A DNA stretch of 64,000 nucleotides from Desulfosudaceae bacterium (GCA_963674745.2 CAXXDV010000003.1:1536001-1600000); one strand, 5' to 3'. Positions 23,842 to 48,535 are shown, numbered from the stretch's first letter. Numbers and translations are program-made. Notes: generated from the sequence alone by a model not told the origin.

Positions 23842-24157
23842 CTGTTTTTTGCGTTTTTGATATTCAGGACCATGTTTCTTCTCCTCGTCATTCCCCGTCT
23901 TGATCGGGGAATCCAGACCGCCCTCGTCATCCTGGACAAGCCTGTCCCGGACTTGATCCGGAAATCCGGAATCCAGTAAATAAATGATGTCATCCTGTGG
24001 CTTGACCAGAGGAGCCATACCTCCTCAAAAAATTCGCTTGTAATTATCAACGAAAATGGCTAAACAACATTAGGGGCGACAAATGATTAGCCTCGGAATT
24101 TGAATTTTCGAGGGAAAATCATGAAAAACGAATAATCCATATCGTTAAATCAAACAA

Positions 24158-24664
24158 ATGAAACTGCGACTCCAAACATTCTCATACCGCTTTGCCGAGC
24201 AAGTACTCAACAGTCGCCTGACAATCAAGCAAGAAATTGAATCTACGCTTAATCACCCTTCCATTAACATTCCGGATCTGACCCGCCCGAAGTTCAACGA
24301 GTTATTGGATAAGTTATTTCAGGAACAAGGTTGGGAAAGCCAGCCTGCAGTCTTTGACGAGCCTCGAGATCCAACTGCAAAAATGGATTTTCTAAAAGAT
24401 CCAGTAGGCGTTGAGGTCGAGTTCGGTCATTCGTCGTTTATCGGAATTGATCTTCTAAAATTTCAGGTTGCATCCTACTCCGGCCTAAACAAAATTGATT
24501 TAGGTGTCTACATCGTTACAACTAGATCGTTTCAAAAACGAATGAAAGACGAGGTCGGCCTTAAATGGGAAGGCAGCTTAACTTTTGAGAAGGTGACAAG
24601 ATATTTACAACATTTTAAAAGTGCGATTCAGGTTCCAATCTTTGTGATTGGAATCGATATGTAA
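24158..24664 (+). CDS. BglII/BstYI-like type II restriction endonuclease fold protein
   Basis: F.EQGW; MDFLKDPVGVEVEFGH; DLLKF; IDLGVYI; SLTFEK; PIFVIGI. Confidence 0.7.
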   Translation: MKLRLQTFSYRFAEQVLNSRLTIKQEIESTLNHPSINIPDLTRPKFNELLDKLFQEQGWESQPAVFDEPRDPTAKMDFLKDPVGVEVEFGHSSFIGIDLLKFQVASYSGLNKIDLGVYIVTTRSFQKRMKDEVGLKWEGSLTFEKVTRYLQHFKSAIQVPIFVIGIDM

Positions 24665-24748
24665 TCGTCCAAAATAACTTTAGGGTACAGCATTGTTATA
24701 TATCTGAAATAGCATACTGCCCCCAGAATTGTATGATAGCCACTAAAA

Positions 24749-27700
24749 ATGAGTAAAAATCGAAAGAAAAAAACCTCCAAAAAGAAGCATCCGAAAATGC
24801 CAGCCGGCTTTCGGCAGAGACTTTACAACAGCAAGGAGTTTAATCCTAAAAAAGTATTTCAAGATCTACAGGCTTATCGAGACTTTAATGAAATGCAAGC
24901 GGTCGCGAATTATGTGGCCAATCCGAACAACCCATTCCATCGTTTCATGTTTGGTATTACGTTTGCCAGGGCATATAATGAATTATGCACTTACCGTTCT
25001 TTCGTTTTGACTGACTCCTTGCAGAAAGAACTAGATTGGATGTCACTATCGCTAGTCCGTTATGCTAAGGAGATATCCCAATTTGTTAAACAAGCAAATG
25101 CCTTTCAAAAAACATTTCTTTTAGGTTCTTACCAACAGGCAAGTGAAATACTTGAAACCATTATCTCTGAATTTGGATTTTCTCTGTGGAGTTTAGAGAA
25201 AACCTTTCTGCTAGCAGAATATGCTCATGGTTTGGAAAGAAACAAAAAAGAGTTGACCAACATCATTGGAGACGAAAAAAACGATGAACTTCTGAAGTTT
25301 ATTGCCGAATACATAAGCCTAAGATGTGAGTCTAAAATGTCAGATGAAAACTATCGAATAAGGTTAAGCCGTGGGATAGATTTTGATGACGATTTTTTTG
25401 TACTTGTTAATTATTTGCGCTACCGACTTGAACAAATTGGCATGGACTTAACCTCTGTCGCAACTCACATCACCTACTTCGAAGGTAGCACGCCCATTAT
25501 TGATCGATATTTAACTTTCATTACTATTCTTCAGTCATGTGCAATAGCTGATCAAGAATATAGTGAAATCGCAAAAAATGTTGTAGTGAGACTTGATGGC
25601 TTGATTGAAGATTTACGTATTGATTCTTTGCTTCAGTTATTCATTCCTGATCGTGAATTTGAATGTAACACATTAGCTGTCAATATGATAGAGGTATTGG
25701 ATAACTACACTAATGGATATTACGAAATTAGTGCAGAGATGGCATCCCAGATTCTTACAGACAATCCAGAAAGTTATGAATTCTATTATATTTATATTCG
25801 TTCTCTCGCCCACATAGGCAAAGCTTTCAATCAATTTTTCCCCGAAGATTCGGTAGCGGCTTCAATTCTTGAACATAGCAATGTAATAATAAGAGGTAAA
25901 AGGTTGTATAACAGGAGTTTCAATTATCTTTCTAAACTATCTACGTCTTTGTGGAGAGACCCGTTGGCATATGGGCTTTTTGATTTTTATGTAGAAGAAG
26001 CGTTGCCCTCTCAAGAAAAAAGAATCCATAAACTAATGTTGCTAAATGCACATTTTCTTAATCCTCGTTTTGCGATAATTTATGAAGATAAAAACAATGC
26101 TGATAAGTTCTTAAACCAGTTATCAAGTCAGGTTGGAGAGGGCAGTACGTTATCACTAATGAGAGCCATAACAGCATCATCCCATAAATTCGATGATGTT
26201 CAGTTACCTGAAGAAATTCCAGAAGCACGAAGACAGATTTACCTTGCGGAAATTTATGAAAAAAAAGGACGGTTCCAAAGTGCTATTTCTGTCCTTCAAC
26301 CACTTCTTATAGATATAATGGAAGATAAATTACCAGGAGGCTTTTATTCATGCGAACGAGTTGCGGGGGCCCTTTTCCGATGTTATCTAGAAAGAAAACA
26401 ATTGGCTGAATGCACTGATATGGTCGTGAGTTCCTTCCTCCAAAATGACCTTTTGACAAAAAAGCTTCCACTTATCCAACTAGTAAAGTCAATTGACGAA
26501 ACAGGTCCAATTGATGTAATGAGGAAGATCTCATACCCAATTTTATATTCAATTGTCCACACTAAACCCCGTGAAGTTTATGTAGCTTATGATAATTTTC
26601 TTAATAGCATGGGTTTAAGTCGTCCAACGCAACTTTTTGATATGGCTGATGAGTTTAGCCCAAGTGATCTGCAGGAATTTTTGTTAAAAGTCTGCACCAT
26701 TGATGTTCTTTCGTGCTCATATCACTTTAATGGAACTAAGGATTTGGAAACGGAGAGGATTCGAATTTGTCAGTTTCTATCTGAGAAAGATCAAACAAGA
26801 TTGAAAATTTATTCAGACGAGATTAGCTCTATTACCTCTCGTTCCTTGATTAGAGAAGGTATGAGACAGATTGAAGTCAGTAAGATACATGTCGACGAAA
26901 AGGGAATCAGGACGACAGGGCGGAAACTTCTAGAAGAGAGTTTTGCGAGATATCGTGAGTTGGCTTCAATGAGCAGTATTAAAAATATGAGGGTTTTGAA
27001 TCAGGAATCTCTTTATCTCTACATAATAACTCGTGATGGTAAGGTAATAAAAGCGCCGATCTCAACAACGGAACTGAAAGATCCCGTTTTCGAGAAACAG
27101 ATCGTTCATAATGCACTGTTCATAAATTTTAGAGAATTGTTCATGGATGTGAGGGATCGATTTATCTCCAGTGGTGAGCATGGGCTTGATGGCTATTTGA
27201 GTGTAAGAATTAGACATGGTGTTTTGCAAAATCAGATACGCAGTACCTTTGAGGCGTTGCACTTAATTTCCGAAAAGGATACTACTACCGAAGAATATCT
27301 TATAAATCCGTATTGGGATACACGACTCGAAGATGTCTCTGTTGAAAACCGGGCAGCAATCCAAGAACAGCTCGCAAATTTCTCTCGTGATGTTGATGCA
27401 CTAGCACAAAGATTAAACAAAGAATTGATTCAAGTTAAAACAGAAAAAAAAAATACCGATGGCCTTTTCGATTATTCATTTAGTACAATAGAACTTTACC
27501 AGATATTCGTAGATGAGTTCCTTCAAATTACAGATTTTGATCAATTTATGGATTGTTTATTTGGAGTATTGTGGACACGTCTAAAGATAAACTTAGAAAA
27601 TATTCAAAACTATATTTCGGTGGAATTGAAGAATACTATCTATGAAAGTATAAGCCAGCTCGAACGTGAAATTCGAAAAATCGTTTCTCAATTCCAGGCC

Positions 27701-28303
27701 GCTGAACTTCTACAAAATATAGCTCGTTGCCAAACAAATCTTCAATACTCAATGGACAGCGTAGCGCAGTGGTTTACAATCTCAGGATCCAGCATTGTCC
27801 CTCAATTTACCCTCGAAAATTTAGTATCTATTTGCATTGAAAGCATCAATAATATTTACCCTCATAAAAAAATTTATCCAGAGAACTATTTTAGCAGTGA
27901 AGAAGTGATTATTGACGGTAAATTTTTTGCCCCGTTCTTTGATATATTACGGACTATTATGGATAATGCTATAACTCATTCAGGGTTACCCCCAGAGAAA
28001 ATTAAGGCCCAAATTATTGTGCAAGTTATTGATAACCGTCTTACAATGCAAATTAAAAATAGTTTGGAGAAGCAAGTGCGTGAATCTGACCCTATTGCTA
28101 ACCTAAAAACAACTCATTCGCTTATTGAAACGGCAGAAGTTACTGGTGGCATAGCCAAAGAGGGAAGATCTGGTTTAATGAAAGTAAGAAAGCTCATGGC
28201 TATTGATTTACAACGTAAGGATTCATCGTTAGATTTTTTTTATGATAATGAAGAGAATTTCGTAGTTAAGCTTAGCATGGAAATAGAGGAGCTGTGTATA
28301 TGA
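24749..28303 (+). CDS. dtcA: Detocs DtcA-like sensor (helical/TPR-like N-terminus, His-kinase-like C-terminus)
   Basis: 1184 aa; LSVRIRHG putative H-box; IMDNAITHSG N-box; KEGRSGL G-box; ATGA-coupled to a REC gene. Confidence 0.75.
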   Translation: MSKNRKKKTSKKKHPKMPAGFRQRLYNSKEFNPKKVFQDLQAYRDFNEMQAVANYVANPNNPFHRFMFGITFARAYNELCTYRSFVLTDSLQKELDWMSLSLVRYAKEISQFVKQANAFQKTFLLGSYQQASEILETIISEFGFSLWSLEKTFLLAEYAHGLERNKKELTNIIGDEKNDELLKFIAEYISLRCESKMSDENYRIRLSRGIDFDDDFFVLVNYLRYRLEQIGMDLTSVATHITYFEGSTPIIDRYLTFITILQSCAIADQEYSEIAKNVVVRLDGLIEDLRIDSLLQLFIPDREFECNTLAVNMIEVLDNYTNGYYEISAEMASQILTDNPESYEFYYIYIRSLAHIGKAFNQFFPEDSVAASILEHSNVIIRGKRLYNRSFNYLSKLSTSLWRDPLAYGLFDFYVEEALPSQEKRIHKLMLLNAHFLNPRFAIIYEDKNNADKFLNQLSSQVGEGSTLSLMRAITASSHKFDDVQLPEEIPEARRQIYLAEIYEKKGRFQSAISVLQPLLIDIMEDKLPGGFYSCERVAGALFRCYLERKQLAECTDMVVSSFLQNDLLTKKLPLIQLVKSIDETGPIDVMRKISYPILYSIVHTKPREVYVAYDNFLNSMGLSRPTQLFDMADEFSPSDLQEFLLKVCTIDVLSCSYHFNGTKDLETERIRICQFLSEKDQTRLKIYSDEISSITSRSLIREGMRQIEVSKIHVDEKGIRTTGRKLLEESFARYRELASMSSIKNMRVLNQESLYLYIITRDGKVIKAPISTTELKDPVFEKQIVHNALFINFRELFMDVRDRFISSGEHGLDGYLSVRIRHGVLQNQIRSTFEALHLISEKDTTTEEYLINPYWDTRLEDVSVENRAAIQEQLANFSRDVDALAQRLNKELIQVKTEKKNTDGLFDYSFSTIELYQIFVDEFLQITDFDQFMDCLFGVLWTRLKINLENIQNYISVELKNTIYESISQLEREIRKIVSQFQAAELLQNIARCQTNLQYSMDSVAQWFTISGSSIVPQFTLENLVSICIESINNIYPHKKIYPENYFSSEEVIIDGKFFAPFFDILRTIMDNAITHSGLPPEKIKAQIIVQVIDNRLTMQIKNSLEKQVRESDPIANLKTTHSLIETAEVTGGIAKEGRSGLMKVRKLMAIDLQRKDSSLDFFYDNEENFVVKLSMEIEELCI

Positions 28304-28752
28304 AAATATTAATCATTGAAGACGATAGTAATAAGATGCAACGTATTTCAAATGAAATTCGTGAAATTAAAACTGATGCACTAATAACTGAAGCGCGTTC
28401 ATATCAAAGTGGTATGCAACTCCTCATGTCTGTAAAATTCGACTTCTTGCTGTTGGATATGAGCCTTCCAATATTTGATATTTCTCCCGAAGAAGATGGT
28501 TTCCGTGTAGATCCATTTTCTGGCCGTAATATTCTTGGCGAGATGTTTAGAAAAGATGTAATTGTTCCCACAGTGGTTATTACAATGTTTGAGACTTTCG
28601 GAGATGGCAGTGATTTGATGACGCTTGATGAACTTGATAAGGAGCTTTCAGAGAATTACTCCTCTATTTACAAGGGAGTAATTTATTACAACTCATCCGA
28701 GATCAATTGGAAAGAATCATTAAAAACCTTTATGGAGAAAATGAATGATTAA
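28300..28752 (+). CDS. dtcB: Stand-alone receiver domain (Detocs DtcB-like)
   Basis: MKILIIEDD; LLLDMSLP; VVITMF. Confidence 0.75.
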   Translation: MKILIIEDDSNKMQRISNEIREIKTDALITEARSYQSGMQLLMSVKFDFLLLDMSLPIFDISPEEDGFRVDPFSGRNILGEMFRKDVIVPTVVITMFETFGDGSDLMTLDELDKELSENYSSIYKGVIYYNSSEINWKESLKTFMEKMND

Positions 28753-29971
28753 AATACTCGTTCTTGACGATAACAAAGATAAATCAGACAAGATTCTTAA
28801 GGTTATTGGAAATATACCTGATATTCCGCTTAGTGATGTCTTATGTGTACAAGATCTCATTCAAGCAAGGGATGCCTGTCGCCAGAATCTTTACGACTTG
28901 TTAATTCTTGACCTGCAGCTACCTAATAGAATTGGAGATACTCCCCAAGACATGGCAGGATGTGAATTTATCAAAGAGCTTAACACTAGCACAACACTAC
29001 TTCGCCCTTTTCACATAATTGGACTCACTGCCTATGATGATATTCTTGAAAAGGCAGATTCTTTTTTTGAAGACGAGCTTTGGCGAGTTATTAAATACGA
29101 TACTCGCACAAATAACTGGCATCGTCAGCTTATATCAAAACTTCAATATTTAATAACATCCAAAAAGGCATTACTTAAGGCAGATTCTACGAGACATATA
29201 TACGACCTTGGTATTGTGACAGCGCTACATGTGCCTGAGTTCCAGAGTATCCTCGATCTACCTGCGGAATGGGAAGTAATCAAACAACCTAATGATCCAA
29301 CTATATATCAAAGGGGTTGGTTTCGTAGTAACAGTAAGCAATTGTCTGTCATCTCGGCTTGTGCGCAACAAATGGGTATGTCTGCCGCAGCTGTTCTCAC
29401 GTCAAAACTCATAACGCAATTTCGTCCACGATTCCTTGCTATAAGTGGTATTGCGGCTGCCGTGAAGGGTGGTGATGCAAAGATAGGTGATATCCTTATC
29501 GCGGATCAATCATGGGATTACGAGAGCGGTAAGCACAAAATCAAGAATGACAAACAGGTCTTTGAGCCTGACCCGAAAAGTATTCCATTGCATGTTCATG
29601 TAAAGGAGTGGTTTTTGCATCATAAAGCGAAGAATTCTTTTCTAGCGGATATACAAAACAGCTGGAGAGGCGGAAAAGAGGCGGAACGTTTACAAGTGCA
29701 CATTGGTCCGATTGCTTCTGGTTCTGCCGTTGTGCAAGATGAACGCATAATAGATCACATCAAAGCACAAAGTCGAAAATTGGTGGGGCTTGACATGGAA
29801 ACCTACGGAGTTTTCTTCGCTGCAGAAAATAACTCACTACCCTGCCCAACAGTTATGTCAATTAAGTCTGCATGTGACTATGCCGATAATGATAAATCAG
29901 ATGAGCATCAAGCCTATGCTGCTTTTACAAGCGCACAGTATTTGTATCATTTCGCTCTGGAGTGCTTATAA
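28745..29971 (+). CDS. dtcC: REC + PNP/nucleosidase effector (Detocs DtcC-like)
   Basis: ILVLDD...LILDLQLP; IVTAL; QMGMSAA; SGIAA; GPIASGSAVV; GLDMETYG; KSACDYAD. Confidence 0.8.
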   Translation: MIKILVLDDNKDKSDKILKVIGNIPDIPLSDVLCVQDLIQARDACRQNLYDLLILDLQLPNRIGDTPQDMAGCEFIKELNTSTTLLRPFHIIGLTAYDDILEKADSFFEDELWRVIKYDTRTNNWHRQLISKLQYLITSKKALLKADSTRHIYDLGIVTALHVPEFQSILDLPAEWEVIKQPNDPTIYQRGWFRSNSKQLSVISACAQQMGMSAAAVLTSKLITQFRPRFLAISGIAAAVKGGDAKIGDILIADQSWDYESGKHKIKNDKQVFEPDPKSIPLHVHVKEWFLHHKAKNSFLADIQNSWRGGKEAERLQVHIGPIASGSAVVQDERIIDHIKAQSRKLVGLDMETYGVFFAAENNSLPCPTVMSIKSACDYADNDKSDEHQAYAAFTSAQYLYHFALECL

Positions 29972-30003
29972 GTCAAAAACAAAACTCAGTTGAAAAGCGT
30001 CAG

Positions 30004-30210
30004 CCGGAATTCGTGATGTGTGTTTCGTTCATGTCTTTGTAAAAAGAATACCTTTAAGTCCAGGCAGGTCAGGCTGCATGGCGACGATATATTCTTTTCG
30101 GTCTTTTGTCAGGCGCTTGATTGCCGCCTCGATTTTGTAGGCATCACTTTTTGAATCCGCCGCAATGGTATAAACCAGTTCCAGTGATCTGGATGCTCTC
30201 GTGTATTTGG
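30004..30210 (-). pseudogene. Duplicated 3' part of the GIY-YIG gene (direct repeat of 34742-34950)
   Basis: Near-identical sequence encoding KYTRASRSLELVY...GILFTKT; breaks exactly at the REP-B at 30211. Confidence 0.85.
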
Positions 30211-30411
30211 GTGGAATTCTGGTGCCAGTATACCTATTTATCTTACATATGAAAAAGATGATATCCGCGGGCATACCCGCACCGGACGCCCATTGGGCAG
30301 CCGCGTTTTTGTGATACAATTGGAAGATACGCTGGGCAGGCGGTTGCGGCCCAGGAAACCGGGAAGAAAACCCAAACCGGCTAACAATTAGTATACTGGC
30401 ACCGGAATTCC
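30211..30411 (+). mobile_element. Miniature RAYT-derived element: inverted REP-B pair enclosing a RAYT C-terminal remnant
   Basis: gtggaattctggtgccagtatac...gtatactggcaccggaattcc; 30242-30391 encodes EKDDIRGHTRTGRPLGSRVFVIQLEDTLGRRLRPRKPGRKPK. Confidence 0.7.
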
Positions 30412-30422
30412 TATATTATTTC

Positions 30423-30517
30423 TGGTATTACCAATAATGGGGTTAAATAATATATTTTAGCTTTTTAGTTAATTTTACGTTGACTTTTACCTTATATTCG
30501 CTATTCTGGTATTACCA
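30423..30517 (+). promoter_or_regulatory. Two FadR/GntR-type operators TGGTATTACCA
   Basis: Palindromes at 30423-30433 and 30507-30517 flanking TTGACT...TATTCT. Confidence 0.7.
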
Positions 30518-30534
30518 AAAATAATGGTGAAATA

Positions 30535-31284
30535 ATGAACAAAGACACATCGCTGACAGAACAGATTGTTTTTAAGCTTAAACAGGAGATTATCAGGGGG
30601 GAATTGAACCCCGGGACCCGGTTGCCGGCCGAAAGGGAGCTTGCTGAAAAATATAATGTCAGCCGGGTTACCATCCGGTCGGTCATTACTCAGCTGTGCC
30701 AGCTTGGTTTTTTAAAAACCGTTCCCAAAAGCGGGACCTTTGTTAACCATTATCTTGAAAATGCGTCCGTTGATCTTCTGGTCGAAATTATCAAAAACAG
30801 TGAGAAAGTTGACAACGTGATGTTTCTGGCGCTTCTGGATGTAAGACGGATTATCGAGGTTTACGCAGCGGGAAAATGCGCGCAGCGAATTACAGCGGAA
30901 GAAATTAACCGGTTGAACGCCCTTGACTTGGAAATGGAATTGCATGCAGGGGACCCGAAAACAGTTGCTGAAACGGATTATGTTTTTCATATGGAAATCA
31001 TAAGAATTGCCGGGAACCCGGTTATCCGGGTTGTGCTTAATTCCATCGGGTCGATTTTCAAATTTTATTTGAATAGTTATTACAAAGTGCCCGGAAATAC
31101 AGAAGCCATAAGACCGTTCTACAAGAGGCTTATGAATTCCCTGGAAATGGGAGACGACAGGTATGCTTCATTTGCAATGGAGGAACTGCTCACCTTTGCC
31201 GAAATGGGTATCAAAGAGACTATGGGGGCAGAGGCCGGGATGATGAAGAAAGAAAATGGATCCCCTGGTCGAGCCGGCGGATGA
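30535..31284 (+). CDS. GntR/FadR family regulator
   Basis: RLPAERELAEKYNVSRVTIR wHTH; FCD domain (DYVFH...GNP). Confidence 0.9.
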   Translation: MNKDTSLTEQIVFKLKQEIIRGELNPGTRLPAERELAEKYNVSRVTIRSVITQLCQLGFLKTVPKSGTFVNHYLENASVDLLVEIIKNSEKVDNVMFLALLDVRRIIEVYAAGKCAQRITAEEINRLNALDLEMELHAGDPKTVAETDYVFHMEIIRIAGNPVIRVVLNSIGSIFKFYLNSYYKVPGNTEAIRPFYKRLMNSLEMGDDRYASFAMEELLTFAEMGIKETMGAEAGMMKKENGSPGRAGG

Positions 31285-32084
31285 CGAAGGAAAGGATTGA
31301 GATGACCCCCAAAAACCACATCGTATTTGTCAGCCTGATCATCGCGGCTACCTGTCTTTTTGAAATGAGCCTTCTGGCCGGGCTGGAGGCGATTGCCGAC
31401 CCTGCTTATCAGGTCGTACATCTTTTTTCCATGGGTCTTTTAATCGCCGGGCAGGTTCTCCTGATCCGGCATTGCCGGCTCAACGGGTTGTCTGTCACGG
31501 TTCCGGCCCTGACCGCGGCCGCCCTGGTGTGCACGGGCATGGGCGACCTTGTCAACGGCACCCTGATCGGCGTTACACCGGTTTCCACCAAGCTGACGTT
31601 CGCCCTGTTCCTCTTTGGCGCGGGCTATCTCATGTATATTTACAACCTGTGGCAGGCCATCCGGACCACGGGCGATCCTTCCCGAAAAATGCCCCTGGCG
31701 GCGCTCATTCCCCTTGTTGTTATTATCCTTATCAATAATGTGGCCTCGTGGTTTATCTACATTGACGAACTGGTGCAAGGATTCACACTGCTTCATTACG
31801 GCGGGTTGACATTCAACGCCACCATTTACGTGGCCATGCCGGTTCTGGGCATTTATTACGCATACAAAACCGGCTGGGCGATTTCCGGCTGGATTATCCT
31901 AATTGCCGGCGTCTTTCTCCCCTATTCGGACCTGATTCTGTTCGACTCCTGGCTGCCGGGAAACCCGGATCAACCGGTCCGCGATTTGTATGCTTACAAC
32001 TGGATGGTCTATTTTAACGGGCAGTGCCTGATGTCCATGCTTCCCGCGTTTCTTGTGCTTGCGGAGAGGAAGGAAGCGGAATAA
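31281..32084 (+). CDS. YhhN/lysoplasmalogenase-like multi-TM protein
   Basis: CTGMGDLV; LFLFGAGYLMY; GVFLPYSDLIL; VYFNGQ resemble YhhN motifs; alternative start 31302. Confidence 0.5.
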   Translation: MTKERIEMTPKNHIVFVSLIIAATCLFEMSLLAGLEAIADPAYQVVHLFSMGLLIAGQVLLIRHCRLNGLSVTVPALTAAALVCTGMGDLVNGTLIGVTPVSTKLTFALFLFGAGYLMYIYNLWQAIRTTGDPSRKMPLAALIPLVVIILINNVASWFIYIDELVQGFTLLHYGGLTFNATIYVAMPVLGIYYAYKTGWAISGWIILIAGVFLPYSDLILFDSWLPGNPDQPVRDLYAYNWMVYFNGQCLMSMLPAFLVLAERKEAE

Positions 32085-34432
32085 TGAGCGAGCGGACACT
32101 GCGGCTGAAAAACGCGCTGCACCGGGAAAAACCCGGCATCTGCCCGGAAAGGGCGCTTCTCTGGACGGCCTATTTCAGGCAACGGGCAAACCGGAAAAAA
32201 CCCGCTGATACCCGGATTGCCGAAGCCACGCGCCACGTTCTTGAAAACAAGACCGTTCATATTTATCCCGAAGAAATCATTGTCGGCAATTACACTTCCA
32301 GGCGCGTGGGCGGCATCATTTACCCGGAGCTGGCCGGGATCCCGGCGCTGCTGGAAATTTCGAAATTTCACACCCGGAAAACAAACCCCCTGGAAACCAC
32401 GGCCCGGGACCGCCGAAAACTGGCTGCCATCATTCCTTTCTGGCTGACCAGGAACATCCCCTGGCAGGCCTTTGCCTCGCCCATAAGAAAAGCGGCCTTC
32501 GGGTGGAAACAGTTGACCGCCCGCCAGTACCAGGTTTACGAAAGCGGCGGCATCGCGCACCTGGCGCCGGACTATGGAAAGCTGCTCCGGGTCGGCGCCC
32601 GGGGGATTATACAAGAAGCGAAACAACAGTTGCGGGAAACGACTGATCCGCAAAAGCGCGATTTTTTCGAGGCGGTCATCATATCCGCAAACGCCCTGGC
32701 TGATTTCGGGGACCGTTATGCCGCCTGCGCGGAGCGCCTGGCTGCCGCGGAAACCGATCGGGAAAGAAAAAGCGAACTTGAAATAATTGCGACTGTCTGC
32801 CGGCGCGTGCCCCGCCACGGCGCCCGGTCCTTTCACGAGGCCGTCCAGTCCATGATGCTCACCCAGGTTGCCCTGTTCCAAGAAAGCATCGGCGAAACCA
32901 TCTGCCCCGGCCGGCTGGACCAGATCCTCTATCCCTATTACCAGAAAGACGCGGCCGGCAACCGCCTCACCGGGGAAAAGGCAAAGGAAATCCTGACCGC
33001 CCTGTGCATCAAGATGTGCGAGACCGTCCCGGTTTTTTCCGATATTCTGACTAAAACCTTGGGCGGGCTGCCCAGTTACCAGGTGGTCACCGTGGGCGGC
33101 GTGGACGAACACGGCCGGGACGCGACCAATGAACTCAGTTACATCTTCCTTGACATCATGGATGAACTGCGGATGCGCCAGCCCAATTTTCATGTCCGCC
33201 TTCACGACAACACCCCCGGCGATTTCTTTGATGAGGTCATCCGCATCCATGCGGGAACCGGCAGCGCGCCCGCCCTGTATAACGACAACATCATCATCAA
33301 AACCATGACCGGCGCCGGATACACCCTGGCCGATGCCAGGAATTACGTGGCCATCGGCTGTGTCGAACCCACCTGCCAGGGGAAAACCCTGGGATCGACC
33401 GATGCCGCCATCGTCAATCTTCCCCTGGCCCTGGAGCTGGCTTTGAACCAGGGCCGGCAGTTCGGGACGAATTTCCGTATCGGCGCGAAAACCCCATCTG
33501 TATCGCAGATGCAATCCATTGAAGATGTCAAGGCCGCCTATGAAGCCCAGCGCCGGCATCAGCTCACAAAGATGATCAATGAATTACGGGCCGTTGAACG
33601 GGCCCACGCGGAACATCACCCTACCCCCATGACCAGCATGCTGCTGGAAGGGTGCCTAAAAAAGGGCGTCTGCTCCACCCGGGGAGGGGCCGTCTACAAC
33701 TTTTCCGGTATTCAGGGCGTGGGTATATCCACTGTCGGGGATTCGCTTTACGCCATCCACAATGCGGTGTTTACCGACCAGCGGATCAGCCTGGAGGGGC
33801 TGGTCGCCGGGCTGAAAGACGACTTGAGCGATCCCGCCCTGCGGGCGCGGCTGCTGCGGCTGGGGAAATTCGGCAATGACCTGCCGGAGGCGGACGATTT
33901 CACCCGCTATGCGGCCGATGACTATGCCGGGGCCATCACCGGCCTGGGGGCAAATACCCGGGGCGGGCCGTATCTGCCGGGCATCTATTCCAACACCACC
34001 CATGTTCATTTCGGCAGTGTCGTGGGGGCTCTTCCCAACGGCCGCTTGCGTTGTCAACCGTTTGCCTCGGGCATGGCACCTGAAAACGGGGCCGACAAAA
34101 AAGGCCCCACCGCCCTGGTCAACTCCATGAACCGGATCGATTACACCCGGTTTCCCAACGGCATCAACTTCAATGTCAAGTTTCAGGCCGCCGCCTTTGC
34201 CGACCATTCCGGCCGTAACGCCCTGGGCAGCATTCTGAGGGTTTATTTTCAACGGGGCGGCATGCAGGCCCAGGTCAACATGATCGATCCTGAGATGCTT
34301 ATGGATGCCCGGAACAACCCCGATCTTTATCCCAACCTGCTTATCCGGGTCTCCGGTTATTCGGCCTATTTCAACGATCTCTCCCCGCAGATGAAAGATG
34401 AAATCATTTCCCGCAGCTTCAATGCCGTATGA
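32084..34432 (+). CDS. Glycyl radical enzyme (single-Cys, non-PFL type)
   Basis: AIGCVEP Cys loop; LLIRVSGYSAYF glycyl motif; GRLDQ; ATG overlaps the upstream stop (TAATG). Confidence 0.9.
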   Translation: MSERTLRLKNALHREKPGICPERALLWTAYFRQRANRKKPADTRIAEATRHVLENKTVHIYPEEIIVGNYTSRRVGGIIYPELAGIPALLEISKFHTRKTNPLETTARDRRKLAAIIPFWLTRNIPWQAFASPIRKAAFGWKQLTARQYQVYESGGIAHLAPDYGKLLRVGARGIIQEAKQQLRETTDPQKRDFFEAVIISANALADFGDRYAACAERLAAAETDRERKSELEIIATVCRRVPRHGARSFHEAVQSMMLTQVALFQESIGETICPGRLDQILYPYYQKDAAGNRLTGEKAKEILTALCIKMCETVPVFSDILTKTLGGLPSYQVVTVGGVDEHGRDATNELSYIFLDIMDELRMRQPNFHVRLHDNTPGDFFDEVIRIHAGTGSAPALYNDNIIIKTMTGAGYTLADARNYVAIGCVEPTCQGKTLGSTDAAIVNLPLALELALNQGRQFGTNFRIGAKTPSVSQMQSIEDVKAAYEAQRRHQLTKMINELRAVERAHAEHHPTPMTSMLLEGCLKKGVCSTRGGAVYNFSGIQGVGISTVGDSLYAIHNAVFTDQRISLEGLVAGLKDDLSDPALRARLLRLGKFGNDLPEADDFTRYAADDYAGAITGLGANTRGGPYLPGIYSNTTHVHFGSVVGALPNGRLRCQPFASGMAPENGADKKGPTALVNSMNRIDYTRFPNGINFNVKFQAAAFADHSGRNALGSILRVYFQRGGMQAQVNMIDPEMLMDARNNPDLYPNLLIRVSGYSAYFNDLSPQMKDEIISRSFNAV

Positions 34433-34487
34433 AGGGAACCGTGGGATAGGATCAGGCTAAGAGAAGCCCAAAATCATCACGACAAAC

Positions 34488-34524
34488 AAAGGGGCCTGGC
34501 ACTGGATGAATGTCAGCCCCTTTT
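34488..34524. terminator. Probable bidirectional terminator
   Basis: aaaggggcctggca...tgtcagcccctttt after the GRE gene. Confidence 0.5.
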
Positions 34525-34681
34525 GATAGATTTATTTCCTTGGCTTCCGTAATCCCTGCTGATTTGACCGGTTAACGACATGCTTGCGGCAACAGCTACG
34601 GTCTTCAATCCGCACGACCTCATCTGCACACCATCGCCACGGGCGGTTGCTTATACCGCGCCGCAGACGTGACTGATCAGG

Positions 34682-34750
34682 GTGGAATTCCGGTGCCAGT
34701 ATACCTATTTATCTTTTGCGGAATTCGTGGTGATACTGGCACCGGAATTC
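34682..34750. repeat. REP family B pair
   Basis: gtggaattccggtgccagtatacctatttatctt...atactggcaccggaattc; further copies near 1047, 19393, 37597-37712, 41917, 42573, 61737. Confidence 0.8.
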
Positions 34751-34768
34751 GTGATGTGTGTTTCGATT

Positions 34769-35062
34769 TCATGTTTTTGTAAAAAGAATACCTTTAAGTC
34801 CCGGCAGGTCAGGCTGCATGGCGACGATATATTCTTTTCGGTCTTTTGTCAGGCGCTTGATTGCCGCCTCGATTTTGTAGGCATCACTTTTTGAATCCGC
34901 CGCAATGGTATAAACCAGTTCCAGTGATCTGGATGCTCTCGTGTATTTGGCCGCTTTGTCCCCGCCTTCAAGGTGCTCGTAGTATCTGGCAACGGGGTTT
35001 ATGGCGACGCCGGTATAAAGAGCGTTTCTATCATTCCGCAGGATGTAAACATGCCACACCAT
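34769..35062 (-). CDS. GIY-YIG nuclease family protein (YhbQ/YazA-like)
   Basis: WHVYIL...LYTG...R..EH..G..AKYTR...E.AIK. Confidence 0.9.
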   Translation of the reverse strand: MVWHVYILRNDRNALYTGVAINPVARYYEHLEGGDKAAKYTRASRSLELVYTIAADSKSDAYKIEAAIKRLTKDRKEYIVAMQPDLPGLKGILFTKT

Positions 35063-37596: not shown

Positions 37597-37760
37597 AATT
37601 CCGGTGGAATTCCGGTGCCAGTATACCTATTTCTCTTTGTTGACACCGGCAGCAAGTGAATCTCCTCCCGCCGCAGAGCGGGAGGAGATTCAGTATACTG
37701 GCACCGGAATTGGGCCCAGCAGTACTCAAGAAACGCATATAATCATAGACGTCCCCACTT
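37597..37760. repeat. Composite REP-B pair with inner hairpin plus half REP-A
   Basis: ccggtgccagtatac...tgaatctcctcccgc/gcgggaggagattca...gtatactggcaccgg, then gaaacgcatataatcatagacgtcccc. Confidence 0.75.
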
Positions 37761-37777: not shown

Positions 37778-38677
37778 CTATTGATTTGCCCAATCGATTA
37801 CCAATTGAGCCCAGCGCTCCCCTTGTTGTTCTTGTATAAAATGAAGGCCGTTCAAAGTAACATGAGGCTCCCCTTTTGCGCCGGGCACTTTATTCTTAAA
37901 TGGTTCTATACATGGACCTGTTAACGGGTCGTTATCCGAGAAGCATAACAGCATCGGTTTCTCCCATTTTTCCAAGACCTTCCAGGCATTTCGGTTATCT
38001 TCAGATGCAGGGTCATCTGGTGAAACCGGAACGAGCAAGGGAAACTGGCGCGCACCAGCCTTATATTCTTCAGAAGGAAATGGGGCTCGATAAGCATCTT
38101 TTTCCGCTTCGGTTAAGGGGCCCTCATCAAACATATTCACTATTAATCCAATATCAAAATCTTCGACTGTTTGGCTAAGCTCACGCCACCCCATAAAGAA
38201 ATCTGACATCGGTTCATCACCAGTTTGCAATCCTGTGTTTGAAATAGAAACACGCGAGAACTTCTCAGGCATAGCGGTAAGAAGCCTTAATCCAATATGA
38301 CCACCCCAGTCTTGAGCGACCAAAGTTATTTCATTTAACTCGAGTGAATTAAGCCAATCACTCATCCATTTAACATAATTCGCTACAGAATAAGCGTCGC
38401 GATCGGTAGGCTTGTCAGAACGACCAAATCCAATAAGGTCTGGGGCTATCACGCGGTACCCTGCAGATAAAAATACCGGTATCATCTTACGATAAAGAAA
38501 ACTCCACGTTGGTTCACCATGCATGCATAGCACAACCGGTTGGTTCGCATCCCCTTCATCAATATAGGCGACTCGCAACGCACCAATTTTTTCGTCAACG
38601 ACTTCCAGGTATTTAGGTTGATAGGGAAAGTTGGGTATATCTTTGAATCGCTCTTCTGGTGTACGTAATACGTTCAT
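37778..38677 (-). CDS. Haloalkane dehalogenase (HLD-I-like alpha/beta hydrolase)
   Basis: LRTPEERF; HGEPTWSFLYRKMI; AQDWGG nucleophile; HFIQE. Confidence 0.9.
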   Translation of the reverse strand: MNVLRTPEERFKDIPNFPYQPKYLEVVDEKIGALRVAYIDEGDANQPVVLCMHGEPTWSFLYRKMIPVFLSAGYRVIAPDLIGFGRSDKPTDRDAYSVANYVKWMSDWLNSLELNEITLVAQDWGGHIGLRLLTAMPEKFSRVSISNTGLQTGDEPMSDFFMGWRELSQTVEDFDIGLIVNMFDEGPLTEAEKDAYRAPFPSEEYKAGARQFPLLVPVSPDDPASEDNRNAWKVLEKWEKPMLLCFSDNDPLTGPCIEPFKNKVPGAKGEPHVTLNGLHFIQEQQGERWAQLVIDWANQ

Positions 38678-40980: not shown

Positions 40981-41122
40981 GGGCACCTCTAAAAATTGCC
41001 TTTTGGCCCGATGTCGGCGTTGTGCTCAAATTTTAATCCTCGAAATACTTCTATGTATTCCTGTGGTTAAAATTTTCACACGCCTTGACCTCGAACCAAA
41101 ATTCTAATTTTTAGAGATACCC
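40981..41122. mobile_element. MITE-like element, copy 1
   Basis: Termini gggcacctctaaaaatt / aatttttagagataccc; second copy at 44851-45000. Confidence 0.7.
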
Positions 41123-44783: not shown

Positions 44784-44850
44784 TGGCGACTGCGAAATTC
44801 TAAACAGAATTATTCCGAAGCGTTTCGGATTTTTTCAAATAAACACTTTA

Positions 44851-45000
44851 GGGCACCTATAAAAATTGCCTTTGGGCCCGATGCCGGCGTTGTGCTCCAA
44901 TTTTAATCCTCGATAGGGCACGGCACGCCCTGCCCCTACTGCGGTTAAAATTCTCGCACGCCTTGACCTCGAACCAAAATTCTATTTTTTAGAGATACCC
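44851..45000. mobile_element. MITE-like element, copy 2, with a GTAG-type REP in its loop
   Basis: Same termini and body as 40981-41122; centre replaced by tagggcacggcacgccctgcccctac. Confidence 0.7.
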
Positions 45001-45379
45001 TTTAATCTCTGGAAAGATAAAGTAATTGATTTAAAAAGGAAAGGCAAAAGGTGGGACTCCTAATTCCATTTCCGGTTCATCAAGAGGCAAAATCTCCTGC
45101 CAGATTACGCATCGACTTAATTGTCAAATTCGGGTATAAAATAAAATTTGGGAATTTTTGGGATTACATCAGGGGAATCCCATGCCATGACGTTTCGTGG
45201 AAACCGGCCGGATGTTTTTACCTTCTGTTAATCATGATGTTCGTTGGTCCGACCCAAACCAGTGTCATGTCAATCGAAAGTGTCGCTTAAAATTTGGATG
45301 GAAGGCTAAATCCTTCCGCTACAAGTGCATTCTTATGCCGTATAAGATTACTTTAACAGACCCTGTAAAGGAGGCAAAA

Positions 45380-48300
45380 ATGTCCGTACGGTCGTATCCC
45401 AGGTCAAAGGCGGTTCTGGTTGTTGCGTTTTCAATGTTCATGTCATTATGTATTCTGATCTCCCCGGGTGTGGTTCAGGCCGAAAACACAATCCAGTGGA
45501 CCAACGGCAATACAATAACCGATTACGCCACCAGTGACGGCAACCTGGTCACCGGTCACGACAACACCATAAGCAACGACAGCGATGACAATGCGGTCAG
45601 CGGCAATAACAACACCCTCAATGACAGCGATTACAATGCAGTCAGCGGCCAAAACAACACTGTTGATGGTGACAACAATCTGGTTTCCGGAAACACCAAC
45701 AGCGTCACCGGCGACAACAACGTGGCCCTCATGGGTGCAACGGTAACGGGCGACAACCTGATCGGCATGGGGTCCGGGGCCGTTGTCTCAGGAACCGACA
45801 GCGTTGCCATAGGCAACAACGCCCGGGCCACTCACGCAAATGCCGTGGCCCTGGGCGCCGGTTCGGTGACCGGCGCGGACAACACCGTGTCTGTGGGCGC
45901 CGCCGGCAGCGAACGCCGCATCACCAATGTCGCGGCCGGCGTCGATGACACCGATGCGGTCAATGTCGGCCAGATGAACACCACCCTGGGCGGTCTCATT
46001 GATGTCAACAATACAAGCGGATACGCCGATCCTTCGGCTACCGGTGATGATTCCGTAGCCGTTGGCCCTGGCGCTGTCGCCACTGGCACTAACAGTACCG
46101 CTACCGGCGTAAGCAGCACTGCCAGCGGTGAAGACAGCACTGCCAACGGTTATGGCAGTGAAGCCAGCAGCCGACAAACTACCGCTACCGGTGCTAACAG
46201 TACCGCCAGCGGCGATCACAGCACCGCCTATGGCTCAGGCAGTACCGCCAACGGCGATCAAAGTACTGCTACCGGATATTACAGTACCGCCAGCGGCATA
46301 AACAGTTCCGCATATGGCACAGGCAGTACCGCCAGCGGCTATGCCAGCACCGCCTATGGCACAGGCAGTACCGCCAGCGGTGAGGGCAGCACCGCTATCG
46401 GCATGAATAGCAGCGCCACCGCCGAATACAGTTCCGCCTTTGGCGTAGCGAGTCAAGCCACCGGCATTAACAGTACCGCTACCGGCACCCTCAGTACGGC
46501 CAGCGGCCAATCCTCCGTGGCCCTGGGGTATAACTCCGACGACGGAGGGCAAAGCAATGTGGTTTCCGTGGGGTCAGTTGGTAACGAGCGCCGGGTTATA
46601 AATGTCGCGGCCGGGATTGATGACACCGATGCGGTCAATGTCGGGCAGATGAATACCGCCGTCGCCAACACCCTGGCTTCGGCCAACACTTATGCGGAAA
46701 CGATTGGCGCTAACACTCTTGCTTCGGCCAATGCTTATACCGATACCAGTTCGGCTAACACCCTGGCATCGGCCAATGCCTATACGGATGGCCGTATTGC
46801 CATCAACAACACGGGCGGATACGCCGATCCTTCGGCCACCGGCAGTAATTCAGTTGCCGTCGGCCCGGGCGCTTTCGCCAGCAGCGAACAAAGCACCGCC
46901 ACCGGCGCTAACAGCACGGCCGACGGTTCATATAGTTCCGCCTTTGGCACAGGCAGTACCGCCAGCGGCATAAGCAGTACCGCTATTGGTTCCTATGACG
47001 TGTTTGGCGGTTATGCCACCGCCAGCTCGAGTTATACCACCGCCATTGGAGCGGGAAGCCACGCCACCAGCTCAGGTGCCACCGCGATTGGCGTTTACAG
47101 CCAGGCCACCGATACTTTCGCCACTGCAACCGGCGTTGACAGTTGGGCCACTGGTTATTACAGCACTGCCTCGGGCGGATACAGTTTGGCAAACGGTGAT
47201 CAAAGCACTACTACCGGCGCATTCAGTCAAGCAACCGCCCAAAGCACCACCGCCAACGGCGCATACAGCGAGGCCAGCGGCGCGTACAGTTCCGCATTTG
47301 GCAACGGCAGCACCGCCAGTGGCCAATCATCCGTAGCCCTGGGGTATAACTCCTCCGACGGGGGGCAAAGTAACGTGGTTTCCGTGGGGTCGGTCGGCAA
47401 CGAGCGCCGTATTATCAATGTCACAGCCGGTGTCGATGACACCGACGCGGTCAATGTCGGCCAGATGAACACCACCGCGGCCAATACGCTTACAACAGCC
47501 AACACTTATGCGGATACGGTGGGCACCAATACCCTGACGTCAGCCAACACTTATGCAGACACGGTCGGGGCCAATACCCTTGCCTCGGCTAATGCCTATA
47601 CCGATACCAGTTCGGCCAATACCCTTTCATCAGCCAACGCCTATACGGACAGCATCGCTTTTGCTTCTGTGTCAGCATCCTATGCCTACACGGACGCGGT
47701 TGCAGCCGGCACCCTGGACTCGGCCAATACTTACACGGATACGGTCGGGGCCAGGGCCCTTGATTCGGCCAATGGTTACACCGAGAATCGTATTGCCGAT
47801 TTTGTTGATGCCGACAACACCGGCGGTTATGCCGATCCGTCGGCCACCGGCCAGGACTCCCTGGCCGTGGGGCCGGGTGCGGTGGCCTCTGCTCCCAAAA
47901 CCCTGGCCGTGGGCATTAACGCGCAAGCAACCGGAACCAACGCCATTGCCATCGGCACCGGCGCCCTGGCCACCGGTTCCGTGGCGGTGGGAACCGACGC
48001 CACTGCCTCTAACGGCGGTTCGGCGGTGGGTGATTATGCCACGGCTACGGGCACCGCCGGCGCAGTATTGGGTAGAAACGCCACCTCCACGGGTAATAAT
48101 TCCGTGGCCATCGGATCCAATTCCACGGATAACGGCGAGGCCAATGTGGTTTCGGTCGGTTCGGCTGACAGCGAAAGAAGAGTCACTCATGTAGCTGCCG
48201 GCGTGGATGCCACAGACGCCGCCAATGTATACCAGGCACAGACTTTTGCATCTAACTCGCTTGCCACAGCCAGGGCCTATACGGACGACAGGATCAACGA

Positions 48301-48535
48301 TCTTGACCAAGAGGCCCACCGGGACATTGCCGGCGCTATTGCCATGTCCAGGTCGAGCATCCCCTTAAACCCGGGAGAATCCGGCATTGCCATGGGATTC
48401 GGCAACTCGCATGGTGAAAACGCGGTGGCCGTCTCCTTCCAGCATTACACCAGGCATAATATTCACGTGAACATCGGTACCAGCCTTGCCGGCGGACGCA
48501 TCCAGACCGGCGGTGGTATTGGCTTGAAGTTTTAG
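45380..48535 (+). CDS. YadA-like trimeric autotransporter adhesin
   Basis: RBS aaggagg; signal peptide; S.A.G head repeats; VSVG...ERRITNVAAG..DTDAVNVGQ necks; ANxYTD stalk; C-terminal barrel ending GLKF. Confidence 0.9.
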   Translation: MSVRSYPRSKAVLVVAFSMFMSLCILISPGVVQAENTIQWTNGNTITDYATSDGNLVTGHDNTISNDSDDNAVSGNNNTLNDSDYNAVSGQNNTVDGDNNLVSGNTNSVTGDNNVALMGATVTGDNLIGMGSGAVVSGTDSVAIGNNARATHANAVALGAGSVTGADNTVSVGAAGSERRITNVAAGVDDTDAVNVGQMNTTLGGLIDVNNTSGYADPSATGDDSVAVGPGAVATGTNSTATGVSSTASGEDSTANGYGSEASSRQTTATGANSTASGDHSTAYGSGSTANGDQSTATGYYSTASGINSSAYGTGSTASGYASTAYGTGSTASGEGSTAIGMNSSATAEYSSAFGVASQATGINSTATGTLSTASGQSSVALGYNSDDGGQSNVVSVGSVGNERRVINVAAGIDDTDAVNVGQMNTAVANTLASANTYAETIGANTLASANAYTDTSSANTLASANAYTDGRIAINNTGGYADPSATGSNSVAVGPGAFASSEQSTATGANSTADGSYSSAFGTGSTASGISSTAIGSYDVFGGYATASSSYTTAIGAGSHATSSGATAIGVYSQATDTFATATGVDSWATGYYSTASGGYSLANGDQSTTTGAFSQATAQSTTANGAYSEASGAYSSAFGNGSTASGQSSVALGYNSSDGGQSNVVSVGSVGNERRIINVTAGVDDTDAVNVGQMNTTAANTLTTANTYADTVGTNTLTSANTYADTVGANTLASANAYTDTSSANTLSSANAYTDSIAFASVSASYAYTDAVAAGTLDSANTYTDTVGARALDSANGYTENRIADFVDADNTGGYADPSATGQDSLAVGPGAVASAPKTLAVGINAQATGTNAIAIGTGALATGSVAVGTDATASNGGSAVGDYATATGTAGAVLGRNATSTGNNSVAIGSNSTDNGEANVVSVGSADSERRVTHVAAGVDATDAANVYQAQTFASNSLATARAYTDDRINDLDQEAHRDIAGAIAMSRSSIPLNPGESGIAMGFGNSHGENAVAVSFQHYTRHNIHVNIGTSLAGGRIQTGGGIGLKF

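Follow-up and report, generated by a model that had tools for sequence, protein, structure and literature searches.

Glycyl radical enzymes (GREs) carry out chemically hard reactions without oxygen, and each newly assigned clade of these enzymes has revealed a new anaerobic pathway. We know of no GRE that has been described with an integral-membrane enzyme as its partner, and the only alkyl-ether-cleaving enzyme known to us is an oxygenase, which is unworkable in anoxic sediments. In glycerol dehydratase, the substrate hydroxyl loses its proton to the Glu of the Cys-x-Glu (CXE) loop, and the leaving hydroxyl receives one from His164 (excerpts of PMC13450708). For the lysoplasmalogenases TMEM86A and TMEM86B, eight residues have been proposed to be catalytic and were mutagenised (K43, G81, D82, H104, G182, S189, D190 and Y213); D82 and D190 are essential for the activity of TMEM86A, and the H104A variant kept >10% activity (excerpts of PMC11994398). 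Here we describe a compact plus-strand unit that encodes, in this order, a regulator, a membrane protein related to YhhN/TMEM86 and an oxygen-sensitive GRE, and that occupies positions 30400-34530 of a 64,000-nt stretch from a Desulfosudaceae bacterium (GCA_963674745.2, CAXXDV010000003.1:1536001-1600000), hereafter called the window.

GRE eliminases, YhhN proteins and FCD-type GntR regulators are known superfamilies; it is their combination that is undescribed. A literature search returned no paper joining "glycyl radical" and "YhhN", and the word "membrane" does not occur in the 2026 review of the GRE superfamily (PMC13450708). We tentatively read the unit as an operator-controlled two-enzyme module, in which a YhhN-like membrane hydrolase and a GRE eliminase act on an ether-type or other acid-labile lipid, and we put this reading somewhat short of an even chance.

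The cassette and its three proteins

Profile comparisons support the placement of the membrane protein in the YhhN/TMEM86 superfamily, as a rare and deep branch, in agreement with the original prediction, made from the sequence alone, which had called it YhhN-like. When the family was compared by hhalign with 16 Pfam-positive YhhN proteins, drawn irrespective of the query from genomes of the phylum, 173 columns were aligned (95% probability, E 3.8e-8). The hidden Markov model (HMM) of the family reached, over nearly full length, five Pfam-positive YhhN proteins (E 1.9e-7 to 3.9e-4 library-wide), which themselves score 61-88 bits on PF07947; with these five added to the YhhN side hhalign gave 99.3% and 6e-20 over 242 columns, values that have to be taken as an upper bound because the added set was selected for likeness. 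In the space of language-model features, 28 of the 30 nearest Atlas clusters fall in the YhhN-like set. The YhhN motifs GD, SD and Y..GQ align with G88-D89, S216-D217 and Y244..Q248, and both Asp motifs, which had been noticed in the original prediction, are invariant together with Y244 in 33 sequences. The alignment of these 33 members has 31 invariant columns, many of them polar and inside helices; besides the residues just named they include E28, Y43, H47, N92, K104, N179, T181 and Q248. The column corresponding to G182 holds Gly in most family members and Ala-Gly in the protein from the window. The invariant polar columns in the helices, the homology to YhhN and the retention of D89 and D217 suggest that the protein is enzyme-like.

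In the AlphaFold2 model of the membrane protein, which is a confident one (pLDDT 91.8, pTM 0.90), eight long helices fill the region from residue 10 to residue 266. A Foldseek search with this model against the PDB returned nothing at E<=0.001, a wide VIA-align search gave only generic seven-helix bundles (G-protein-coupled receptors and rhodopsins; best Z 12.0, under the level that the tool regards as meaningful for helical bundles), and comparison of the family profile with PDB sequences yielded one match, at chance level (E 0.014). The family is very small, as follows from an HMM scan of 1.84 billion representatives, which found 45 proteins at E<=0.001, 23 of them at E<=1e-30; a word-indexed search of 5.8 billion clusters gave 36 relatives, all annotated as "hypothetical". 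Among 401 genomes sampled from the phylum it is present in the host genome only, which lacks a canonical YhhN gene. Fused or longer forms were not found among 8000 scored candidates of 512-2000 aa, which is weak evidence of their absence. In a Thermodesulfobacteriota metagenome-assembled genome (MAG), an open reading frame (ORF) publicly annotated as glycoside hydrolase family 3 contains, at L027:7001-7189, a stretch of 63 residues with 87% identity to the C-terminal end of the membrane protein, which is probably a gene remnant.

The GRE matches PF02901 (3.6e-175, residues 1-644) and PF01228 (1.9e-29, residues 660-764). It carries the catalytic loop G425-C426-V-E428-P429, i.e. the GCVEP loop already recognized in the original prediction, and the glycyl motif R755-V-S-G758-Y759; H159, C426, E428, D440 and G758 are invariant in 51 homologues (53-91% identity). 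Among solved structures, the B12-independent glycerol dehydratase of C. butyricum comes first (1r8w, 5.4e-155, 521 bits, query residues 3-778), followed by PFL2 of A. fulgidus, a "glycyl radical protein" (9rco) and propanediol dehydratase. With respect to 1r8w, H164, Y339, C433, E435, D447 and Y640 are kept (as H159, Y332, C426, E428, D440 and Y635), as is the glycyl site, G758. His281 and Ser282, which we take to be the substrate-binding pair of glycerol dehydratase, are replaced by Glu271 and Thr272, and the consensus of the 51 homologues at this place is Gly-Glu-Thr. Since the CXE loop, the His and the glycyl site are kept but His281/Ser282 are not, the enzyme is, judged by its sequence, built like a C-O (or C-X) 1,2-eliminase, and by its pocket it is not a glycerol or propanediol dehydratase.

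The subfamily model TIGR01774 gives 645.7 bits, under its cut-off of 678.2, and no equivalog is reached (HpfG 471 vs 1000, HypD 465 vs 1100, CutC 406 vs 1050 and PFL 456 vs 1109 bits; HpsG is also far below), in keeping with the earlier description of the enzyme as uncharacterised; it can be assigned to none of the characterised enzymes. Among the candidates scored there are 1628 homologues at E<=1e-100, which bear generic names only and come under labels that include Smithella, Syntrophorhabdaceae, Desulfosarcina, Bacteroidales and Spirochaetota. That the GRE is simply a glycerol or 1,2-propanediol dehydratase, with the membrane gene as an incidental neighbour, is highly improbable: the best solved match and the conserved set of residues are what such an enzyme would have, but the substitution at His281/Ser282, the score on TIGR01774, the recurrence of the pairing in several lineages with a conserved operator, and a host genome without a single bacterial microcompartment (BMC) shell gene all argue otherwise. 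Prediction of a complex between GRE residues 35-782 and membrane protein residues 12-262, both supplied as alignments, gave a score of 0.00 and no verdict. Elsewhere in the host genome (C1:1681040-1683874) activase-like and GRE segments share one 1110-aa frame, an apparent activase-GRE fusion.

The gene order, the overlap of the GRE start codon with the stop codon of the membrane gene (TAATG) and the presence of two operators are as originally predicted, with the start of the second operator corrected to 30507 (Table 1). The overlap proposed for the first two genes exists if the membrane ORF begins at its first ATG (31281), which overlaps the TGA of the regulator gene (ATGA); if it begins at 31302, a 17-nt spacer separates them. 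The latter start is the likelier one, because 31 of the 32 aligned relatives begin at or after this second Met; a GGA-rich stretch precedes it. Exact copies of TGGTATTACCA occur three times in the whole 5.5-Mb genome, i.e. twice here and once at C3:1804520, 150 nt inside a 942-aa ORF. With one mismatch permitted, the window holds no further operator site; on shuffled sequence the same search gave a mean of 1.06 matches, and four were reached in 2 of 100 shuffles. The first base of the second operator is also the last base of the promoter-like sequence TTGACT-16-TATTCT. At the other end of the unit, the 50-nt stretch around the terminator-like hairpin folds at -18 kcal/mol, and a consensus scan for signals did not list this hairpin. 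The G+C content rises along the cassette from 0.46 in the regulator gene to 0.59 in the GRE gene (genome 0.50).

The regulator matches PF00392 (3.2e-19), PF07729 (3.3e-17) and the FadR_C domain PF07840 (32.2 bits vs a cut-off of 23.6). It stays under every NCBIfam equivalog cut-off, the best being LldR (85.7 bits vs 311), and for the FadR equivalogs NF003444 and TIGR02812 it scores 72.9 vs 189 and 72.2 vs 249 bits, respectively. The operators belong to the palindrome type TGGT-N3-ACCA, which we take to be typical of FadR-subfamily GntR repressors. The operon is probably repressed by the product of its own first gene, which would sit on the pair of identical palindromes at the promoter; repression would last until the FCD domain takes up a metabolite of the pathway. 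This role as a repressor is itself presumed.

Table 1. Coordinates of the cassette, its control elements and flanking repeats (window positions), and of the paralogous locus in the host genome (contig C1)
Feature	Position	Strand	Description
Operator 1	30423-30433		Exact palindrome TGGTATTACCA, 11 nt; overlaps a weak -35-like hexamer
Promoter-like site	30480-30507	+	TTGACT-16 nt-TATTCT; 9/12 consensus matches, consensus match only
Operator 2	30507-30517		Same palindrome, TGGTATTACCA; 84 bp past operator 1, 18 nt ahead of the regulator ATG
Regulator	30535-31284	+	FadR-subfamily GntR regulator, 249 aa; helix-turn-helix (HTH) and FCD domains; first gene of the operon
Membrane protein	31302-32084	+	Divergent YhhN-superfamily membrane protein, 260 aa, 8 helices; 267 aa if ATG 31281 is used
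GRE	32084-34432	+	GRE of the PFL2/glycerol-dehydratase group, 782 aa; PF02901, PF01228
Terminator-like hairpin	34491-34525	+	G+C-rich hairpin followed by TTTTG, 59 nt past the GRE stop
Left direct repeat	30004-30210		Copy of 207-209 bp; within a 96-aa ORF (30029-30319, minus strand), a partial copy of the right-hand GIY-YIG gene
Right direct repeat	34742-34950		Inside a GIY-YIG ORF (34769-35062, minus strand; GIY-YIG Pfam match 1e-12)
Paralogous GRE locus (L072)	C1:1034138-1043062		GRE 64% identical to that of the window, same Gly-Glu motif

Recurrence of the pairing

To follow the association beyond the host, we used loci fetched from members of the membrane family, 15 from genomes and 13 from metagenomes. 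Of the 15 genome loci, two (L013 and L019) have a GRE in the fetched flank, as do six of the 13 metagenome loci (L030, L031, L032, L035, L036 and L037); the latter amount to three arrangements, because L030/L031 and L032/L035 are near-identical and L036/L037 are stretches of a single contig. In L030/L031 a GRE (67% identical to that of the window) is followed by a true activase (TIGR02494, 287.5 bits) and then by the membrane gene (57%). L032/L035 and L013 share a different order, i.e. a divergent regulator, the GRE (54-55%), an Fe-S protein of 318-319 aa and the membrane gene, with a geranylgeranyl-reductase-family flavoprotein ahead of the membrane gene and a patatin-like phospholipase after it in L013. 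L036 encodes the GRE, the Fe-S protein, a 289-aa membrane protein, the membrane gene proper, an aldehyde:ferredoxin oxidoreductase, a ThiF protein and an OYE flavoenzyme. In the gammaproteobacterial MAG represented by L019, the membrane gene is separated by 42 nt from a GRE that is only 37% identical to that of the window.

Elements of the control region recur as well. L013, L032 and L035 each have two occurrences of TGGTATTACCA, TGGTAATACCA or TGGTCATACCA in the stretch from regulator to GRE, at a distance of 73-74 bp; the examined slice of L036 has the motif once, ahead of the GRE. A GntR/FCD regulator 42-43% identical to that of the window is encoded in L013 and L032; there it is divergent from the GRE, whereas in the window it heads the operon.

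The Fe-S protein, 295-319 aa long (L013:4677-5633, L032:3338-4297, L036:3870-4826 and L014:191-1078), matches models of reductive dehalogenases and epoxyqueuosine reductases at 1e-10 to 1e-7, with 41-44 bits vs a cut-off of 160. In L013, L032, L035 and L036 it stands between GRE and membrane gene, in the place of the activase, and on the short contigs L014 and L033 it directly precedes the membrane gene. It is a possible third component of the module.

We calculated a tree for GREs and another for the membrane proteins. The former comprised 30 rows: the GRE of the window, six from loci linked to the membrane family, nine paralogues from the host, two from the L013 genome and 12 of the best matches from 400 other genomes of the phylum; L081 (no full frame) and L031 and L037 (duplicates of L030 and L036) were left out. 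The latter comprised 22 rows, after omission of fragments (L027, L040 and L041) and duplicates (L031, L033, L035 and L037). In the GRE tree, the enzyme of the window, that of L030 and the host paralogue form one group, whose sister consists of L036, L013, L032 and L035; together they make up a clade of seven rows and six distinct sequences (L032 and L035 being the same) with 99% SH-aLRT support. A membrane-family gene is found within 3 kb in six of these seven rows, the host paralogue being the exception, and conservation of the membrane gene beside the GRE is thereby borne out. The sister of this clade, again of seven rows (51-53% identity), comes from genomes without any match to the family profile; six of its seven loci were inspected and contain, among others, activases, TetR or GntR regulators, SDRs and sugar-type genes. 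The GRE of L019 branches far from the clade of the window.

In the tree of membrane proteins, the GRE-linked members occur in at least two places and at least two changes of the GRE label are needed; the proteins of L036 and L019 group with each other among members linked to a hydrolase, unlike their GREs. The disagreement between the two trees indicates that the two families were joined more than once, which argues for function over inherited synteny. We conclude that the GRE and the membrane protein probably work together; that they share a pathway, the order in which they act and the lipid origin of the substrate are further steps that we infer. Of the two partners, the GRE clade is widespread in environmental anaerobes and the membrane family is rare and unannotated.

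Possible substrates

If the cassette, a self-contained 4-kb operon between direct repeats, is indeed a lipid-directed module, its action could be pictured as follows. The membrane protein would be an Asp-dependent hydrolase that attacks, at the bilayer, a deacylated amphiphile of the ether type or of another acid-labile kind and frees from it a beta-hydroxy compound derived from glycerol. The GRE would be a cytosolic 1,2-eliminase that owes its glycyl radical to one of the five activases encoded at other places in the genome. It would take the H atom next to the hydroxyl, with Glu428 deprotonating this hydroxyl and His159 protonating the neighbouring C-O leaving group. The product would be an aldehyde or ketone, to be oxidised in related loci by the aldehyde oxidoreductase. 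The clues for a lipid are the patatin-like phospholipase and the geranylgeranyl-reductase-family protein of L013, the aldehyde oxidoreductase of L036, the FadR-type regulator and the homology to YhhN.

Another clue comes from L029, in which the closest homologue of the membrane protein (81% identical) is encoded directly after a 1413-aa PlsA/Ger-like protein (L029:1452-5693) with two BcrAD/BadFG domains and a DUF2229 domain. In its size and predicted architecture this protein matches plasmalogen synthase/Ger; single-gene forms of plsA span 4,248-4,920 bp (excerpts of PMC12838417), and 1-alkyl glycerol ethers are the product of Ger, a homologue of PlsA from a sulfate reducer (excerpts of PMC13159169). 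The host has a 1427-aa open frame 79% identical to the L029 protein (C3:1299052-1303266), which suggests that it makes ether lipids. The same facts could be taken to mean that the module serves to remodel or build ether lipids of the cell itself, e.g. by turnover of plasmalogens or alkyl-ether lipids formed by the PlsA/Ger-like enzyme. We consider this quite improbable, as the adjacency is a single one, L029 has no GRE within 6 kb, and a cassette that is under the control of a repressor, flanked by repeats and present in 1 of 401 sampled genomes of the phylum looks like an accessory catabolic trait. The L029 segment closes with 162 bp that duplicate the 3' end of an ABC-F gene.

A number of observations weigh against a lipid-cleaving module. 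The membrane protein has no Pfam or NCBIfam match, with nothing for PF07947 at E<=1, and PF07947 is matched by only 1 of 33 family members (4.3e-7) and by none of 14 core representatives. Two of the eight proposed catalytic residues of YhhN proteins are not kept: the column of His104 holds an invariant Tyr116, in line with the loss of this His pointed out in the original prediction, and that of Lys43 holds Val, with the invariant His47 two residues on. Each of the lipid-related neighbours is found in one locus only. The PlsA-like adjacency occurs in 1 of 28 loci, in a rearranged region; all fetched loci were searched, and L029 is the only one among those carrying the membrane gene that has a PlsA-like gene, while the host gene of this kind is 265 kb from the window. 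The GRE adjoins neither an activase nor microcompartment genes, as had been stated originally; no TIGR02494-type activase is encoded in the window, and the genome has five for ~10 GREs, the nearest ~117 kb away. The host activase closest to that of L030 (51% identity) is at C1:2192931-2193809. Finally, the paralogous GRE in the host heads an operon with an aldehyde dehydrogenase, a DUF202 protein, a dihaem cytochrome c, an MFS transporter and a GAPOR-/AOR-like tungsten/molybdenum oxidoreductase, with no activase beside the GRE and no YhhN-like gene. Such an operon is suggestive of an imported substrate that is small and soluble, and of an aldehyde as the product. Because the paralogue is paired with an MFS transporter, the membrane protein of the cassette could be a mere uptake component.

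From this follows an alternative in which the membrane protein is a permease or channel that imports a small polar substrate (e.g. a diol or an amino-alcohol), which the GRE then dehydrates or cleaves to an aldehyde. Loss of the His and the Lys of the YhhN residue set would be consistent with a permease, and the soluble hydrolase that accompanies the membrane protein in aerobes could likewise need an importer. On the other hand, the excerpts of YhhN/TMEM86 literature that were searched describe no member of the family as a transporter, all 33 sequences keep both Asp motifs, the Ser and the Tyr, and repeated recruitment to two types of enzymes fits a shared chemical step at least as well as uptake. 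We regard a permease as unlikely, if by no means far-fetched.

The second type of enzyme is found in aerobic Proteobacteria, in MAGs of Aquabacterium, Fluviicoccus and Moraxellaceae, where the membrane gene lies away from any GRE and adjoins one particular alpha/beta hydrolase (in L015, L016, L017, L018, L020, L022, L023 and L039; in L025 it is 3 kb off). This hydrolase is 57-91% identical among the loci and carries the motif HGWP and an Asp-Trp-Gly nucleophile elbow; among solved structures it best matches soluble epoxide hydrolases (2.9e-17) and haloalkane dehalogenases, and does so over the N-terminal 110 residues only. At least L017, L018, L023 and L039 also encode an AraC regulator with the pair, and L023 and L038 an SRPBCC protein. 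The GRE and the partner hydrolase were never found together in the loci examined. An epoxide-hydrolase-like partner with an Asp nucleophile in aerobes fits an ether-lipid pathway in no obvious way, and this has to be added to the points raised above. In the window, an alpha/beta hydrolase of the haloalkane-dehalogenase subfamily is encoded on the minus strand at 37778-38677 (NF002043, 413.8 bits vs a cut-off of 265), in a run with a DUF6206 protein and a class-III aminotransferase, adjoining a TetR gene. It shares the broad Asp-nucleophile class with the aerobic partner hydrolase; we rejected it as an orthologue of the latter, to which it is 24-28% identical over ~110 residues only.

The aerobic partner brings up an epoxide or vicinal-diol (or halohydrin) chemistry on a hydrophobic compound. 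Opening of the epoxide would then fall to the hydrolase in aerobes; in anaerobes, the QueG/RdhA-like Fe-S protein would bring about its reduction or the GRE the dehydration of the diol, and it would be for the membrane protein to deal with the greasy compound. The hydrolase with epoxide-hydrolase matches in nine loci, the QueG/RdhA-like Fe-S protein beside the membrane gene in six (L013, L032, L035, L036, L014 and L033) and the fact that the closest solved relatives of the GRE are diol dehydratases would suit it. We give it little credence, since the epoxide-hydrolase matches are confined to the N-terminal part of the protein, the QueG/RdhA scores are far below the cut-offs, and neither partner is in the operon of the window, where the hydrolase nearby is on the other strand, 3.3 kb off and no orthologue.

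The lipid-directed module that we prefer can be given a more specific form. The cassette would then represent the first oxygen-independent way of breaking glycerol ether lipids, with the YhhN-like hydrolase and a GRE ether/diol lyase converting deacylated lipids of the plasmalogen or alkylglycerol type to a fatty aldehyde or alcohol and a C3 carbonyl; as a complete statement this is improbable. The original prediction had proposed an ether-lipid or alkylglycerol module with new GRE chemistry. The orphan GRE, its YhhN-like partner and their conserved pairing agree with the module, and for its substrate the backing is purely contextual. New chemistry is not required, as cleavage of a ring-ether C-O bond by YbiW/PflD has already been described (excerpts of PMC13450708), and because of this precedent an alkylglycerol lyase would be an extension of what GREs are known to do. 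If the substrate is an ether lipid, oxygen-free degradation of such lipids becomes directly testable, and its existence would explain how ether lipids, which sulfate reducers themselves make, are turned over in anoxic sediments. Should the membrane protein turn out to act as a permease, the substrate can still be sought by way of the conserved regulator, operators and partners.

Surroundings of the cassette and comparison with known systems

The two copies of the direct repeat that bracket the cassette, each a part of a GIY-YIG gene, are 98% identical, and the genome holds only three copies in all, the third at C1:1733826-1734163; this suggests that the cassette was inserted or moved by recombination at a GIY-YIG repeat element. 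A 36-nt repeat is present three times in the window (30209-30244, 34680-34715 and 37603-37638; copies 94-97% identical), and 27 nt of it recur at one further place in the genome (C3:1517818). Directly upstream of the cassette is an island of low G+C content (24000-30000, 0.37-0.39 vs 0.50 for the genome), which looks like a defence island and encodes a BglII-type restriction endonuclease (24158-24664), an 1184-aa protein without a Pfam match (24749-28303), a short receiver-like protein (28294-28752) and a protein of the PNP_UDP_1 phosphorylase superfamily (28745-29971). Members of a repeat family of ~137 bp lie at 40981-41116 and 44850-44994 of the window and, upstream of the PlsA-like gene, at L029:1301-1439. 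With ~35 copies over all three contigs of the host genome (blastn, 68-92% identity), this repeat looks like a miniature inverted-repeat transposable element (MITE) or a repetitive extragenic palindromic (REP) element. A stretch of high G+C content (45197-48535, plus strand) encodes a trimeric autotransporter adhesin of 1112 aa with YadA head, stalk and anchor domains.

Each of the three proteins can be set against a described counterpart. The regulator resembles the repressors FadR, LldR and PdhR in its HTH and FCD domains, its FadR_C match and the TGGT-N3-ACCA palindrome at the promoter, and differs from them in that it reaches none of the equivalogs. The membrane protein shares with the lysoplasmalogenases YhhN, TMEM86A and TMEM86B (PF07947) the eight helices and the GD, SD and Y..GQ motifs; unlike them, its family has invariants of its own (E28, Y43, N92, K104, N179 and T181) and is accompanied by a GRE or by an epoxide-hydrolase-like enzyme. 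The GRE has the size, the Cys-x-Glu loop, the general-acid His and the glycyl site of glycerol dehydratase (1r8w/1r9d) and propanediol dehydratase (5i2a), from which it is set apart by Glu271/Thr272, by the lack of an adjoining activase and of a microcompartment, and by its partnership with a membrane protein. YbiW and PflD are distant from it (E 1.9e-117 and 1.5e-103) and act on soluble sugar phosphates with no membrane partner; yet they perform the ring-ether C-O scission of 1,5-anhydro-hexitol-6-phosphates with the Glu of the CXE motif deprotonating the neighbouring hydroxyl (excerpts of PMC13450708), and this CXE loop is kept in the GRE of the window.

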